Assembly: GCF_003334335.1 (NCBI RefSeq)
Contig: NZ_QOWQ01000011.1
From: Escherichia coli
GTDB lineage: Bacteria; Pseudomonadota; Gammaproteobacteria; Enterobacterales; Enterobacteriaceae
Length of the DNA: 64,000 nucleotides
Direction: 5' to 3' (one strand)
The position numbers were made by a program, and so were the translations under genes. The notes under the pieces were generated by a model, which ran no database searches, was not told the origin of the DNA, and saw only the letters and a list, made by a program, of their open reading frames with translations. Below, one piece after another: positions 1-49,001 of this stretch; positions within the stretch are counted from its first letter, which is position 1; every line of letters starts with the position of its first letter.

Positions 1-488
1 GGGCAACCGTCCTCGACCATAGCGGTGCGCCACTGGATGAAAAACAGAAAATGGGCACCGTGGGGGCCGTGGCGTTGGATTTAGACGGCAATTTGGCGGC
101 AGCCACGTCCACAGGCGGAATGACCAATAAATTACCCGGACGAGTTGGCGATAGTCCCTTAGTGGGTGCCGGATGCTACGCCAATAACGCCAGTGTGGCG
201 GTTTCTTGTACCGGCACGGGCGAAGTCTTCATCCGCGCGCTGGCGGCATATGACATCGCCGCGTTAATGGATTACGGCGGATTAAGTCTCGCGGAAGCCT
301 GCGAGCGGGTAGTAATGGAAAAACTCCCTGCGCTTGGCGGTAGCGGTGGCTTAATCGCTATCGACCATGAAGGGAATGTCGCGCTACCGTTTAACACCGA
401 AGGAATGTATCGCGCCTGGGGCTACGCAGGCGATACGCCAACCACCGGTATCTACCGTGAAAAAGGGGACACCGTTGCCACACAGTGA
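1..488 (+). CDS. iaaA: Isoaspartyl dipeptidase / L-asparaginase, C-terminal part (5' end lies outside the window)
   Basis: Open frame from the window edge to TGA at 486..488; translation has the Ntn-hydrolase asparaginase-like stretch ([23 protein letters not shown]); sits immediately upstream of gsiA as in K-12. Confidence 0.85.
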
Positions 489-2346
489 TGAACTTGATGC
501 CGGTAATGTGCTGGCGGTTGAAAATCTGAATATTGCCTTTATGCAGGACCAGCAGAAAATAGCTGCGGTCCGCAATCTCTCTTTTAGTCTGCAACGCGGT
601 GAGACGCTGGCAATTGTTGGCGAATCCGGCTCCGGTAAGTCAGTGACTGCGTTGGCATTGATGCGCCTGTTGGAACAGGCGGGCGGTTTAGTACAGTGCG
701 ATAAAATGCTGTTGCAGCGGCGCAGTCGCGAAGTGATTGAACTTAGCGAGCAGAACGCTGCACAAATGCGCCATGTTCGCGGTGCGGATATGGCGATGAT
801 ATTTCAGGAGCCGATGACATCGCTGAACCCGGTATTTACTGTGGGTGAACAGATTGCCGAATCAATTCGTCTGCATCAGAACGCCAGTCGTGAAGAAGCG
901 ATGGTCGAGGCGAAGCGGATGCTGGATCAGGTACGCATTCCTGAGGCACAAACCATTCTTTCACGTTATCCGCATCAACTCTCTGGCGGGATGCGCCAGC
1001 GAGTGATGATTGCGATGGCGCTGTCATGCCGCCCGGCGGTGCTGATTGCCGATGAGCCAACCACCGCGCTGGATGTCACTATTCAGGCGCAGATCCTGCA
1101 ATTAATCAAAGTATTGCAAAAAGAGATGTCGATGGGCGTTATCTTTATCACTCACGATATGGGCGTGGTGGCAGAGATTGCCGATCGGGTACTGGTGATG
1201 TATCAGGGCGAGGCGGTGGAAACGGGTACCGTCGAACAGATTTTTCATGCACCGCAACATCCTTACACCCGTGCGCTGTTAGCTGCTGTTCCGCAACTTG
1301 GTGCGATGAAAGGGTTAGATTATCCCCGACGTTTCCCGTTGATATCGCTTGAACATCCAGCGAAACAGGCCCCCCCCATCGAGCAGAAAACGGTGGTGGA
1401 TGGCGAACCTGTTTTACGAGTGCGTAATCTTGTCACCCGTTTCCCTTTGCGCAGCGGTTTGTTGAATCGCGTAACGCGGGAAGTGCATGCCGTTGAGAAA
1501 GTCAGTTTTGATCTCTGGCCTGGCGAAACGCTATCGCTGGTGGGCGAGTCTGGCAGCGGTAAATCCACTACCGGGCGGGCGTTGCTGCGCCTGGTCGAAT
1601 CGCAGGGCGGCGAAATTATCTTTAACGGTCAGCGAATCGATACCTTGTCACCCGGCAAACTTCAGGCATTACGCCGGGATATTCAGTTTATTTTTCAGGA
1701 CCCTTACGCTTCGCTGGACCCACGTCAGACCATCGGTGATTCGATTATCGAACCGCTGCGTGTACACGGTTTATTGCCAGGTAAAGACGCGGCTGCACGC
1801 GTTGCGTGGTTGCTGGAGCGCGTGGGCCTGTTACCTGAACATGCCTGGCGTTACCCGCATGAGTTTTCCGGCGGTCAGCGCCAGCGCATCTGCATTGCTC
1901 GCGCGTTGGCATTGAATCCAAAAGTGATCATTGCCGACGAAGCCGTTTCGGCGCTGGATGTTTCTATTCGCGGGCAGATTATCAACTTGTTGCTCGATCT
2001 CCAGCGTGATTTCGGCATTGCGTATCTGTTTATCTCCCACGATATGGCGGTGGTAGAGCGGATTAGTCATCGTGTGGCGGTGATGTATCTCGGGCAAATT
2101 GTTGAAATTGGTCCACGGCGCGCGGTCTTCGAAAACCCGCAGCATCCTTATACGCGTAAATTACTGGCGGCAGTTCCGGTCGCTGAACCGTCCCGACAAC
2201 GACCGCAGCGTGTACTGCTGTCGGACGATCTTCCCAGCAATATTCATCTGCGTGGCGAAGAGGTGGCAGCCGTCTCGTTGCAATGCGTCGGGCCGGGGCA
2301 TTACGTCGCACAACCACAATCAGAATACGCATTCATGCGTAGATAA
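475..2346 (+). CDS. gsiA: Glutathione ABC importer ATP-binding subunit with two tandem ABC domains
   Basis: 623-aa product beginning (M)PHSDELDAG from a TTG at 475; two Walker A motifs (GESGSGKS twice) and two LSGG signatures; overlaps the iaaA 3' end by 14 nt. Confidence 0.9.
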
Positions 2347-2365
2347 CATTCAGGCGGAGAATAAA

Positions 2366-3903
2366 ATGGCAAGAGCTGTACACCGTAGTGGGTTAGTGGC
2401 GCTGGGCATTGCGACAGCGTTGATGGCATCTTGTGCATTCGCTGCCAAAGATGTGGTGGTGGCGGTAGGATCGAATTTCACCACGCTCGATCCGTATGAC
2501 GCAAATGACACGTTATCTCAGCCGTAGCGAAATCGTTTTACCAGGGGCTGTTCGGTCTGGATAAAGAGATGAAACTGAAAAACGTGCTGGCGGAGAGTTA
2601 TACCGTTTCCGATGACGGCATTACTTACACCGTGAAATTGCGGGAAGGCATTAAATTCCAGGATGGCACCGATTTCAACGCCGCGGCGGTGAAAGCGAAT
2701 CTGGACCGGGCCAGCGATCCGGCGAATCATCTTAAACGCTATAACCTGTATAAGAATATTGCTAAAACGGAAGCGATCGATCCGACAACGGTAAAGATTA
2801 CCCTCAAACAGCCGTTCTCAGCGTTTATTAATATTCTTGCCCATCCGGCGACCGCGATGATTTCACCGGCAGCGCTGGAAAAATATGGCAAGGAGATTGG
2901 TTTTTATCCGGTGGGAACCGGACCGTATGAACTGGATACCTGGAATCAGACCGATTTTGTGAAGGTGAAAAAATTCGCGGGTTACTGGCAGCCAGGATTG
3001 CCCAAACTGGACAGCATAACCTGGCGTCCGGTGGCGGATAACAACACCCGCGCGGCAATGCTGCAAACCGGTGAAGCGCAGTTTGCTTTCCCCATTCCTT
3101 ACGAGCAGGCCACACTGCTGGAGAAAAACAAAAATATCGAGTTGATGGCCAGTCCGTCAATTATGCAGCGTTATATCAGTATGAACGTGACGCAAAAGCC
3201 GTTCGATAACCCGAAGGTCCGTGAGGCGCTGAATTACGCCATTAACCGTCCGGCGCTGGTGAAAGTTGCCTTTGCGGGCTATGCAACGCCAGCTACTGGT
3301 GTGGTACCGCCAAGTATCGCCTACGCGCAAAGTTATAAACCGTGGCCTTACGATCCAGTGAAAGCGCGCGAATTACTGAAAGAGGCGGGATATCCCAACG
3401 GTTTCAGTACCACGCTGTGGTCGTCACATAACCACAGCACCGCGCAGAAAGTGCTGCAATTTACCCAGCAGCAGTTAGCGCAGGTCGGGATTAAAGCCCA
3501 GGTGACTGCGATGGATGCCGGACAGCGGGCGGCAGAAGTTGAAGGTAAAGGGCAAAAAGAGAGCGGCGTGCGGATGTTCTACACTGGCTGGTCGGCTTCA
3601 ACCGGCGAAGCGGACTGGGCACTATCGCCGCTGTTTGCCTCGCAGAACTGGCCACCGACGCTGTTTAATACCGCGTTTTACAGCAATAAACAGGTGGATG
3701 ACTTCCTGGCTCAGGCACTGAAAACTAATGATCCGGCGGAAAAGACCCGCTTATATAAGGCGGCGCAGGATATCATCTGGCAAGAATCGCCGTGGATCCC
3801 GCTGGTGGTAGAAAAACTGGTGTCGGCACACAGTAAAAACCTGACCGGTTTTTGGATCATGCCAGACACCGGCTTCAGCTTTGAAGACGCGGATTTGCAA
3901 TAA
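2366..3903 (+). pseudogene. gsiB: Glutathione-binding periplasmic protein gene disrupted by a 1-bp deletion
   Basis: ATG at 2366 with GGAG 8 nt upstream; signal-peptide N-terminus [26 protein letters not shown]; frame ends at TAG 2525..2527 after ...DTLSQP; the rest of the protein continues in the -1 frame (ORF 2569..3903). Restoring one G after 2521 gives continuous [23 protein letters not shown]. Confidence 0.8.
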
Positions 3904-46911: not shown

Positions 46912-47811
46912 TTACGCAGAGAAAAAGGCGATGAGGAGCGGCACTAACAGGCTAAGAATAAAACCGTGAACAATTGCCGCCGGGACCATATCCAGCCCGC
47001 CAGTACGTTGAAGAACGGGCAGGGTGAAATCCATTGATGTGGCACCGCATAAGCCCAGTGCAGTAGAGCGGCTGCGGCGAATCAGCCCAGGGATCAACAT
47101 AATAGCAATCAGTTCACGGGCCAGATCATTAAAAAACGCCGCGCTCCCGATTACCGGACCAAAAGATTCGGTCAATAAAATACCGGAAAGAGAATACCAG
47201 CCGAAACCGGAGGCCATTGCCAGCGCGGTATTGATGGGGAGATCAAGAATAAAGGCGTTAATTAAACCACCAATTAATGAACTGACAACCACCACCACGG
47301 CGACAATCATTCCCCGGCGATTAAGGACAATCTGCTTTAAGGTCATGCCATTATTGCGCAACTGAATACCAACGAGGAAAAGTAGCAAAATTAACGTGTA
47401 TTCACTGGCTTCGGTCGCGTGTTGTAAGAAAGCCAGTCCACTTAGACCAATGGCAAAACCAATCACTACTACGCCGCACAGTTTTAGCGACTCCAGCGCC
47501 ATCGCAATACGCGACGGGAGTTTTTCTTGCTGATGGTGGTTGCGCCACGGCAGGCCTCGCTCCAGCCACATCAGGGCGGCAATATTACACAGTAAAATAA
47601 CGGTAATACTGACGGCAGAATAATGCAGAATCGCCAACAGGTTACTGGCGAGGTTATCGAGAAACGCCAGACTGATACCCATAAAAAAGAGAATAAGGTA
47701 AACCATCCAGCTTAATAGCTGATTAATAACTTTTAACGCAGCTTGTTGGCGAAGCGGAATGAGGTAACCCACAATCAGGGGAACCAGAATGATTAACAGC
47801 CCAGAAAACAT
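46912..47811 (-). CDS. lysO: L-lysine exporter
   Basis: Membrane ORF; I give the 299-aa form from ATG 47811 (MFSGLLIILVPLIVGYL...); the ORF track extends it to 47859 (315 aa), so the start is uncertain. K-12 name ybjE. Confidence 0.85.
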   Translation of the reverse strand: MFSGLLIILVPLIVGYLIPLRQQAALKVINQLLSWMVYLILFFMGISLAFLDNLASNLLAILHYSAVSITVILLCNIAALMWLERGLPWRNHHQQEKLPSRIAMALESLKLCGVVVIGFAIGLSGLAFLQHATEASEYTLILLLFLVGIQLRNNGMTLKQIVLNRRGMIVAVVVVVSSLIGGLINAFILDLPINTALAMASGFGWYSLSGILLTESFGPVIGSAAFFNDLARELIAIMLIPGLIRRSRSTALGLCGATSMDFTLPVLQRTGGLDMVPAAIVHGFILSLLVPLLIAFFSA

Positions 47812-48265
47812 GAAAACCCAGTCCTTGCAAAGATGAAGTCGAAATGCGCGATGACACACTACTGAAAGCGGAAGGACGAGTAAAGTTGCAATTAAAAGGA
47901 AATGTTATGCATAAGGAGCAGTAGAGTATTCGTTTTCATTTAAAGATATTCTTGCGCTTTAATTACAAACTGCACCGATGTTGGTGGCGTCAAAATCGCC
48001 GAGGCGTTCCCTGAAGGCCGGGGCAGCCCACATGGATGTGGGCTGAGGGCGCGTTTTACAGGGATGTTACCTCGCGCCCGACCCGGTAGCCGTAAGGGAT
48101 AAGTCGAGGGCACCGCGCAGCGGCGATTTTGTTCGCCAGAGCCCGGGGGTGCAGGGGGCGGCGGCGATTGGCCGCCCCCTGCGCGCTCCTTGCGCCAGTG
48201 GCAATATGTTGCTTAGCTCATGAAAGGAGCGCAACAAGATGATGAATCAACATATAACAACATCT

Positions 48266-48296
48266 TAAAAAAAGGCCTGACATTACGCCAGGCCTT
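48266..48296 (-). terminator. Rho-independent terminator after aqpZ
   Basis: Stem aggcctg / caggcct followed on the minus strand by a U-run (plus aaaaaaa at 48267..48273). Confidence 0.6.
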
Positions 48297-48305
48297 CTGC
48301 GTTAA

Positions 48306-49001
48306 TTAATCACGCTTTTCCAGCAGGGTCCGGTAAATCAGACCACCGATAATGCCGCCGACAATTGGCACCACCCAGAAGAACCACAGTTGTTCTAATG
48401 CCCAGCCGCCCTGGAAGATAGCAACCGCGGTGCTGCGCGCCGGGTTAACAGAAGTGTTAGTCACCGGAATACTAATTAAGTGAATCAGGGTTAAGGCCAG
48501 ACCAATAGCGATCGGCGCAAAACCTGCCGGCGCGAATTTGTCGGTTGCGCCGTGGATCACCAACAGGAAACCTGCACTCAATACCAGTTCAACTACCAGC
48601 GCGGAAAGCATGGAATAACCGCCTGGTGAATGCTCGCCATAACCGTTAGAAGCAAAACCGCTGGCTGCCGCGTCAAAACCCGTTTTACCACTGGCAATTA
48701 AATACAGCAGCGCCGCTGCAACAATACCGCCGACAACCTGGGCAATTACGTAGCCAACGACTTCTTTTGCCGGAAAACGTCCGCCAGCCCATAAACCAAT
48801 AGTGACCGCCGGGTTAAAATGACCACCAGAAATATGACCAACAGCAAAGGCCATCGTCAGAACGGTCAGACCGAACGCCAACGCCACGCCGGCAAAACCA
48901 ATGCCTAATTCCGGGAAGCCTGCGGCCAGTACAGCACTACCACAGCCACCAAAAACAAGCCAGAAAGTACCAAAACATTCAGCTGCTAATTTTCTGAACA
49001 T
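48306..49001 (-). CDS. aqpZ: Aquaporin Z water channel
   Basis: 231-aa product from ATG 49001 ([17 protein letters not shown]...), two NPA motifs ([14 protein letters not shown]). Confidence 0.93.

Follow-up and report, generated by a model that had tools for sequence, protein, structure and literature searches.

The GC-rich island between lysO and aqpZ of Escherichia coli belongs to a TwoAYGGAY-like structured repeat family and may bind CsrA

The DNA studied here (the window) is a 64,000-nt stretch of Escherichia coli contig NZ_QOWQ01000011.1, in which a GC-rich island lies in the gap between lysO (ybjE) and aqpZ. This island is one copy of a low-copy, non-coding repeat family of the Enterobacteriaceae, ~265-320 bp in length, whose copies keep one secondary structure through many compensatory substitutions. 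The case for its identity as a covariation-supported structured repeat resembling the TwoAYGGAY RNAs (Rfam RF01731) is strong, and a CsrA-binding function is plausible from the sequences of its hairpin loops. Our overall reading, which we hold tentatively, is that the element is a TwoAYGGAY-type structured RNA repeat that may bind CsrA, and not a cis-regulator of lysO. The window is 100% identical to E. coli K-12 MG1655, and a window coordinate equals the NC_000913.3 coordinate minus 867,046.

Results

The island and its copies

A preliminary description, made from the window alone, had pointed to a GC-rich island between AT-rich flanks that held several inverted repeats, and this picture held up on measurement. 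GC content is 0.58-0.73 over 47950-48249 and 0.35-0.44 on either side, and the 22-bp palindrome (arms 48024-48033 and 48036-48045, 100%), the GGGCGCG/CGCGCCC pair (48047-48053 and 48073-48079) and the 12-bp GC stem (48151-48162 and 48171-48182, 100%) lie where they had been placed. To these can be added a 16-nt inverted repeat that closes the island over a long range (47991-48006 and 48116-48131, 88%) and a 9-bp stem (GCGCTCCTT/AAGGAGCGC). As had also been described, the island contains no open reading frame (ORF) of 60 codons or more, the longest frames of the - strand having 57 and 56 aa and that of the + strand 37 aa, and it is not a REP, the REP-derived Rfam model naRNA4 giving no match in 47700-48400. 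Folded as RNA, the + strand has a minimum free energy (MFE) of -143 kcal/mol (z = -5.1) and the - strand one of -130 kcal/mol (z = -6.4), stabilities attained by 0 of 200 dinucleotide shuffles. The element exceeds the span first noted, since weakly conserved arms widen the core (47971-48235) to ~47943-48262.

An unrecognised repeat family had been one of three possibilities raised for the island, and it is borne out by a blastn survey of 5,426 complete E. coli genomes. Every one of the 5,426 has a match; the 18,863 places amount to a median of 3 and a maximum of 10 in a genome, and not one is annotated. The search for further copies that the preliminary description had proposed brings the total in K-12 to three, all without RefSeq annotation. 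The first is the lysO-aqpZ copy (core 47971-48235). The second, between yohP and dusC, is full length and 94% identical (NC_000913.3 ~2,229,115-2,229,386, - strand) and begins 52 nt past the dusC stop codon, whilst the third, between putP and efeU, is a short form that lacks the central 100 nt. Full copies occur at efeU-putP and alx-sstT in other E. coli strains. Beyond E. coli, true copies turned up in E. whittamii, E. albertii, two further Escherichia species and Pseudocitrobacter faecalis when one genome of each species was scanned for exact patterns; the remaining matches outside Escherichia were short contaminant contigs or chance matches in coding sequence (VGGVKIA/VGGVKFA-type peptide motifs). 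Identity of the core between Escherichia species is 94-96.5%, compared with 90-92% for the flanking coding sequences.

Copies of 81-86% identity were found in Klebsiella pneumoniae, K. aerogenes, K. variicola and Citrobacter, with 13 places in a single 5.37-Mb chromosomal record of K. pneumoniae. These Klebsiella and Citrobacter copies come from plasmid-collection records that are really pieces of chromosome, and a plasmid location was rejected because the matching 'plasmid' records are mislabelled. NZ_CP148327.1 (pZ1323HEC0475-2), for example, carries the chromosomal order macA-ybjX-ybjD-aqpZ-lysO-hcp-hcr-poxB, and the PLSDB records CP125156.1, NZ_CP134663.1 and NZ_OL790696.1 look mislabelled from their chromosomal gene order or their size of 4.8-5.4 Mb. 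A phage origin was likewise rejected, there being no match among 50,697 phage records. In K. pneumoniae CP125156.1 two copies form a tandem direct pair with a 437-bp period, 3' of a mechanosensitive-channel gene (L041:2064-2291 and 2501-2728), and every Klebsiella copy has a REP-like sequence (CCTTA(C/T)CCG(A/G)CC…) just before it. The sequence of the element was not found in any paper of the searchable literature, and nothing usable was found under the repeat names RSA, BoxC or IRU, or on mapping of the lysO promoter. The poorly documented RSA repeat of Bachellier et al. is 152 bp long and present in ~6 copies.

A conserved fold on the + strand

A consensus fold of 78 pairs was derived from an alignment of 18 copies of the type found at lysO in K-12 (A-type), and 98.7% of its cells are paired. 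Compensatory changes occur at 15 of the 78 pairs, as against 8.5 +/- 1.6 in column shuffles (0/500 reach the observed value) and 0-3 in controls in which partners were slid by 1-3 columns. With the diverged B-type copies described below included, compensatory changes are seen at 25 of 48 pairs, shuffles giving 8.3 +/- 1.9 (0/500), although this joint alignment was fitted to the model, which favours structure. One secondary structure is thus maintained across the family, and the third possibility that had been raised, a structured non-coding RNA, is upheld as far as the fold goes, with strong covariation; the RNA itself is predicted only, and no consensus promoter was found.

The 265-nt core (47971..48235, + strand, to which all of the following parts refer) is the GGA-bearing structured strand in the 18-copy alignment, in the fold and by MFE. 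It is enclosed by a closing helix, P0/P1, whose 5' strand (UGUUGGUGGCGUCAAAAUCG, 47979..47998) pairs with a 3' strand (CGAUUUUGUUCGCCA…CCGGGG, 48124..48148), an inverted repeat recovered in the consensus fold with compensatory columns 16:172 and 20:168. The outer helix holds three fixed U.G pairs, which are possible on the + strand only and would read C.A on the other. Within P1, the 5' strands of the inner helices (CCGAGGC, UCCCU, GGC and CGGG; 47999..48022) pair with 48082..48109, and inner helix 3 shows compensatory changes in 3/5 pairs. The 3' strands (48082..48109) include the invariant GGGAUAAG, which carries a third GGA and is paired with UCCCU at 48008-48012.

Two adjacent hairpins sit inside these helices. 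Hairpin 1 (48024..48045, CCCACAUGGAUGUGGG, matching ACANGGAUGU) has a stem of 9-10 bp and a UGGA loop. The loop sequence CAUGGAUG is unchanged in all A-type copies, whilst the stem has changed in compensatory fashion in EC71 and Klebsiella, reading CAGCCCACAU/AUGUGGGCUG in K-12, CGACGCGCAU/AUGCGCGGCG in EC71 and CAGCCCGCAU/AUGCGGGCUG in Klebsiella. Hairpin 2 (48047..48079) combines a 7-bp outer stem, GGGCGCG/CGCGCCC, which is also compensatory in Klebsiella and EC71, with an apical UACAGGGAUGU. The P1 domain further contains a small 4-bp hairpin (CCGC-GCA-GCGG, 48113..48123), 3/4 pairs of which covary once the B-type is added. On the 3' side of P1 follows a 12-bp G+C hairpin (GCAGGGGGCGGC-GGCGAUUG-GCCGCCCCCUGC, 48151..48182) with four compensatory pairs, including double C-G to A-U swaps in two copies; it has no U-tract after it on either strand and received no terminator call. 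The 3' hairpin (48183..48232) pairs GCGCUCCU with AGGAGCGC around a variable 34-nt loop, buries an AAGGAG that is the fourth GGA and resembles a Shine-Dalgarno sequence, and shows a U-A to C-G change among copies. The core is flanked by weakly conserved arms, seen in the alignments of copies and flanks: a left arm (…GATATTCTTGCGCTTTAATTACAAAC, 47943..47970) that precedes the core in most copies and whose similarity fades ~25-30 nt upstream of it, also between K-12 and E69 at dusC-yohP, and a right tail (AAGAUGAUGAAUCAACAUAUAAC, 48236..48262).

The structured strand is the + strand of the window, antisense to both lysO and aqpZ. This follows from the lower MFE of the + strand in 18/18 copies (by 5-28 kcal/mol; mean -143 versus -129), from an excess of G.U over A.C cells and from the three fixed U.G pairs. 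The ratio of G.U to A.C cells on the whole consensus fold, 117:9, is biased towards the + strand, from which the fold was predicted; at pairs that are mostly Watson-Crick it is 17:9.

Relation to TwoAYGGAY

TwoAYGGAY RNAs, defined by two hairpins with AYGGAY loops, were described from gut metagenomes, Clostridia and gamma-proteobacteria and judged probably to be non-cis-regulatory RNAs (Weinberg et al. 2010, PMC2864571). In the Rfam structure search that the preliminary description had suggested, TwoAYGGAY was the sole notable match to the island, on the + strand and over the full length of the model. The element likewise carries an adjacent pair of GGA-loop hairpins (ACAUGGAUGU and ACAGGGAYGU), 1-2 nt apart, inside a long P1; it too occurs in gamma-proteobacteria, in several copies per genome and without consistent gene association. 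The published P1 is 'often very large, e.g. 24 bp' (PMC2864571 supplement), and the closing helix of the element (47979-47998 with 48124-48148) is ~20 bp. The hairpin 1 loop, an invariant AUGGAU, fits AYGGAY. In the portion of the PMC2864571 alignment that was available, Psychromonas ingrahamii has at least five copies with loops ACAUGGAUGU and ACAGGGACGU, and no Enterobacteriaceae accession was found.

The connection is made by a diverged paralogue, the B-type. In Pseudocitrobacter a B-type copy (L037:2218-2281) passes the RF01731 gathering threshold (49.2 bits versus 43), and the B-type is also found in K. variicola. Its modules stand in the same order as in the A-type, namely a P1 domain with two GGA hairpins, a G+C hairpin and a 3' hairpin. 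Moreover, a covariance model (R1) built from A-type P1 domains only, 144 positions in length, finds the B-type at L037:2186-2329 (57.2 bits, E ~8e-12) and at L046:1505-1648 (52.7 bits), over all 144 positions in both cases. The element differs from TwoAYGGAY in having extra inner helices and two further 3' hairpins, the G+C clamp and the one that buries AAGGAG, which lie outside the Rfam model. On these comparisons of sequence and predicted fold, the E. coli element is best treated as a putative diverged and extended enterobacterial variant of TwoAYGGAY, and not as a curated member.

Two arrangements involving the B-type can be recorded here. At mdlB-glnK of Pseudocitrobacter faecalis (L037:1860-2445) an A-type and a B-type copy lie head-to-head, ~30-50 nt apart, and are crossed by a spurious 183-codon ORF. 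In E. coli CT29 (L047:1330-1700) a partial B-type, comprising the G+C hairpin and the terminal hairpin only, is fused to BoxC-like sequence and adjoins an IS66 fragment in a pyrL-proximal island; it is the sole B-type trace in the 5,426 E. coli genomes.

Position and orientation of the copies

Between lysO and aqpZ the element is found in the K-12 orientation in 4,127 genomes (76%) and inverted in 1,293 (24%), together 5,420 of 5,426. These haplotypes were counted with junction-specific queries because the best match in some genomes was the dusC copy, so that identity bands could not be read as lysO haplotypes. The inverted copy, as seen in strains 94-3024, VL46 and E69, has junctions unrelated to those of K-12. 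The K-12-type arrangement also occurs in E. albertii, E. whittamii and Escherichia sp. E1V33 and is therefore old. Moreover, in E1V33 the intergenic cassette (window 47913-48305) is 99-100% identical to that of K-12 whilst the flanking genes are 90-92.5% identical, which suggests, from these identities, a recent horizontal exchange of the cassette alone.

Two other loci are dimorphic in the same way. At dusC-yohP the element lies in sense 3' of dusC in K-12 and L3Cip3, and in sense 3' of yohP in E69 and O157:H7 Xuzhou21. The final codons of dusC differ with the haplotype (…IDIEKL* in K-12, L045:5380-5445, versus …IDIDKLR* in E69, L023:1150-1240), and a terminator-like hairpin, GCTGCGAT…ATCGCAGC, is present in the E69 type only; the boundary of the cassette is therefore placed inside the 3' end of dusC. 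Near dusC in E. whittamii and E1V33 there is also a Peptidase-S11 Rfam motif above threshold (67.4 bits; L017:4551-4631 and L027:1731-1811), together with several REP-derived naRNA4 matches. At alx-sstT the element is in sense in EC71 and antisense in E. whittamii, and K-12 has a BoxC/PIT-type repeat in its place, reading CCCTCTCCC…GGGAGAGGG…GGGTGAGGG…CCCTCACCC (L009:3560-3760; NC_000913.3 ~3,239,560-3,239,760). This site is a hot spot at which different lineages carry different repeat families.

In a neighbour-joining tree the copies cluster by sequence type and not by locus, the inverted lysO copies joining the efeU copy and a dusC copy of E1V33; loci have therefore been re-occupied by different paralogues. 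A simple inversion in situ at lysO-aqpZ was rejected, as similarity between the haplotypes spans only ~47963-48237 with unrelated flanks, and as the inverted copy is 95% identical to the copy at efeU and 91% identical to that at lysO in K-12. The junctions show replacement of a whole cassette and not clean insertion. The nine distinct sites all fall between genes that are tandem or convergent (0/9 divergent); where the genes are tandem, the element reads in sense at two sites and antisense at three. The copies were not found to share terminal inverted repeats or target duplications, and no linked enzyme gene, autonomous partner or adjacent transposase appeared at the loci examined.

The lysO-aqpZ locus

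The gap between lysO (b0874, 46912..47811, - strand) and aqpZ (b0875, 48306..49001, - strand), both taken from RefSeq, measures 494 bp and has no RefSeq annotation. The upstream region of lysO that is common to both haplotypes (47812..47912, - strand) is 94-100% identical across Escherichia, and the lysO promoter presumably lies within it, outside the element. Also outside the element is the intrinsic terminator hairpin of aqpZ (48265..48297, reading AAGGCCUGGCGUAAUGUCAGGCCUUUUUUU on the - strand), which is absent from the inverted haplotype. RefSeq starts lysO at 47811; a mechanical ORF call finds a GTG 16 codons upstream of the annotated ATG, within 47812-47859 (315 versus 299 aa).

Discussion

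CsrA as the candidate ligand

The CsrA consensus from SELEX (systematic evolution of ligands by exponential enrichment) is RUACARGGAUGU, in which ACA and GGA do not vary and GGA sits in a hairpin loop (PMC4347634), and Gardner and Eldai proposed that TwoAYGGAY RNAs bind CsrA (PMC4333381). Hairpin 2 of the element (UACAGGGAUGU, 48057-48067) matches positions 2-12 of that consensus exactly, and hairpin 1 (ACAUGGAUGU, 48030-48039) follows it with one deviation. These two loops are the only matches to ACANGGATGT in the 64-kb window, and the motif recurs in other copies. Both GGA motifs are apical, on the same strand and 28 nt apart. According to a spacing rule that Mercante et al. reportedly set out in 2009, 28 nt can be bridged by a CsrA dimer. 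Because both loops match the high-affinity consensus with GGA in the loop, binding of a CsrA dimer would be the most likely mechanism.

As we picture it, the + strand, which in K-12 is antisense to lysO and aqpZ, would give rise to a discrete RNA of ~265-320 nt that starts near GCACCGAUGUUGG and acts as a protein-binding module. The two loops would form a pre-organised two-site ligand for a CsrA dimer, held in fixed geometry by the long helix, and the outcome would be titration of CsrA or its recruitment to whichever transcript carries the element. In showing GGA in hairpin loops the element resembles CsrB, CsrC, McaS and RsmX/Y/Z. However, CsrB and CsrC carry 9-22 GGAs whereas the element has two exposed and two buried, and the CsrA-sequestering RNAs are single fixed genes whereas the element is repeated and shifts in position and orientation. 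A larger claim, that the element represents an overlooked ~270-nt RNA family of E. coli and Klebsiella which forms an enterobacterial branch of TwoAYGGAY, is expressed under unsampled conditions and binds CsrA or another GGA-loop protein, appears unlikely.

A number of observations weigh against a CsrA-binding TwoAYGGAY-type RNA. The K-12 lysO copy scores 30.6 bits against RF01731 (E 0.01) and does not reach the gathering threshold of 43, and other A-type copies (EC71 alx, 36.6 bits; Pseudocitrobacter, 29.6 bits) also fall below it. The hairpin 2 loop is AGGGAU, AGGGAC or A-GGAC, in which a purine or a gap replaces the Y of AYGGAY, and the apical stem of this hairpin is not kept in all copies. 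Two of the four GGAs, those in GGGAUAAG and AAGGAGCGC, are buried in helices, the other two being exposed in hairpin loops. A scan of both strands of 47780-48330 found neither a sigma-70-like promoter nor an intrinsic terminator, and the left arms of the aligned copies show no evident conserved promoter. Read-through cannot supply the RNA in K-12, where lysO and aqpZ are both read from the strand opposite to the structured one. In the CsrA CLIP-seq (crosslinking and immunoprecipitation with sequencing) table of Potts et al. 2017 (PMC5694010, Supplementary Data 1), which covers one growth condition and whose handling of repeat reads is not known, no peak starts at either full K-12 copy (intervals 9142xx-9144xx, 9150xx-9152xx, 22272xx-22274xx and 22292xx-22294xx), and the entries for ybjE and dusC read 'No'. 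No candidate for either intergenic region is named in the supplements of Shinhara 2011 (deep sequencing of small RNAs). Lastly, the compensatory changes and the strand asymmetry would equally arise from hairpins that work in single-stranded DNA.

Other explanations

The most immediate suggestion for an island ~160 nt from the start codon of lysO, a gene known to be regulated, was a structured 5' leader or regulatory region specific to lysO, responsive for instance to lysine or arginine. We regard this as highly improbable. The structured strand is antisense to lysO; the element is inverted at the same locus, with different flanks, in the 1,293 genomes that make up 24% of E. coli; copies stand at unrelated loci (dusC-yohP, putP-efeU, alx-sstT and several Klebsiella loci); the upstream sequence common to both haplotypes stops at 47912, before the element; and no lysine riboswitch or other Rfam cis-regulator was matched. 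Since either orientation occurs at three loci in different lineages, the element is not a cis leader. A small protein, encoded by the 56/57-aa ORFs of the - strand or the 37-aa ORF of the + strand, has a next to negligible chance of being the explanation, even though ORFs of 37-57 codons overlap the element and one K. aerogenes annotation places an 'uncharacterised protein' over a copy. Indels of 1, 2 and 11 nt between copies break every frame, and substitutions are paired across helices instead of falling at third codon positions. Downstream ORFs fare no better: none is conserved across copies, and translation from the AAGGAG and an ATG at the right end was rejected because other copies have neither the 9-codon ORF of K-12 nor the 26-aa ORF found at dusC.

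The element could be a non-autonomous mobile element, similar to PATEs or REPINs, whose single-stranded hairpins are recognised by an HUH-type or other recombinase acting in trans, with no RNA function and inert copies in K-12; we consider this somewhat unlikely. It would account for the occupation of different intergenic loci in different strains and species, for either orientation with differing junctions at lysO-aqpZ, dusC-yohP and alx-sstT, for clustering by sequence type and not by locus, and for the tandem pair of K. pneumoniae, the head-to-head pair of Pseudocitrobacter and the internally deleted short forms. A strand asymmetry suits single-stranded transposition specific to the top strand, and no evidence of expression came from the promoter scan, the CLIP-seq table or the small RNA supplements. 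In being small, non-coding, structured and variable in presence, position and orientation, with deleted derivatives, the element also resembles miniature inverted-repeat transposable elements (MITEs) and the PATEs derived from IS200-IS605. However, it has no consistent terminal inverted repeats or target site duplications and no autonomous relative or adjacent transposase at the loci examined. A MITE with terminal inverted repeats was rejected, as the other copies do not repeat the 13-nt inverted match of K-12 (47946-47958/48228-48240) and the best terminal match differs in position and sequence from copy to copy (8-11/12). Copy number is low and stable, the lysO locus being occupied in 5,420/5,426 genomes, and the orthologous copy is kept across Escherichia species and more conserved than the neighbouring genes. 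Invariant GGA loops in a multi-helix domain are more like a ligand-binding RNA than transposon ends, and TwoAYGGAY was judged a probable RNA by its discoverers. A further alternative, that the element is a REP-like, orientation-tolerant module whose very stable hairpins, as parts of neighbouring transcripts, guard 3' ends against exonucleases or stop read-through from one gene into the next (of aqpZ into lysO), seems to us quite unlikely. Its appeal lies in the nine loci, all convergent or tandem, although the lack of divergent sites is weak (~p = 0.08 on the assumption that one intergenic region in four is divergent), in the tolerance of both orientations by the population, and in the fact that both strands fold far better than shuffles. 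Moreover, the terminator hairpin of the upstream gene is missing in both haplotypes in which the element lies downstream in sense (aqpZ in 94-3024, dusC in K-12) and is retained in the antisense haplotypes, an observation from two loci only. Such a module would leave the invariant GGA loops, the conserved multi-helix P1 domain and the advantage of one strand unexplained, and no U-tract follows any of the hairpins. With REP/BIME, ERIC/IRU and BoxC/PIT repeats the element shares an extragenic, palindromic and strain-polymorphic character and a place 3' of genes, and it shares their hot spots, BoxC standing at alx-sstT in K-12 and REPs abutting the Klebsiella copies. Unlike them it measures ~265-320 bp and not 35-127 bp, has three copies and not hundreds, and takes up a complex, asymmetric multi-helix fold with conserved loops; the naRNA4 model, which recovers REPs at other loci, does not find the island.

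Implications

No other genome has been searched for non-coding RNAs as much as that of K-12, yet the element is without RefSeq annotation and lies below the Rfam threshold, even though its covariation support equals that of many accepted RNA families. For annotation, the consequence is that the island should not be treated as regulatory sequence of lysO. If the orientation dimorphism at three loci without terminal repeats belongs to an element that moves as DNA, it would point to an uncharacterised mechanism of mobility or exchange. If instead the element is transcribed and binds CsrA, it would provide TwoAYGGAY, which has been an orphan since 2010, with a function that can be tested in a tractable organism, and the Csr network, with its global regulator, would have an input that is mobile and variable in copy number and between strains.

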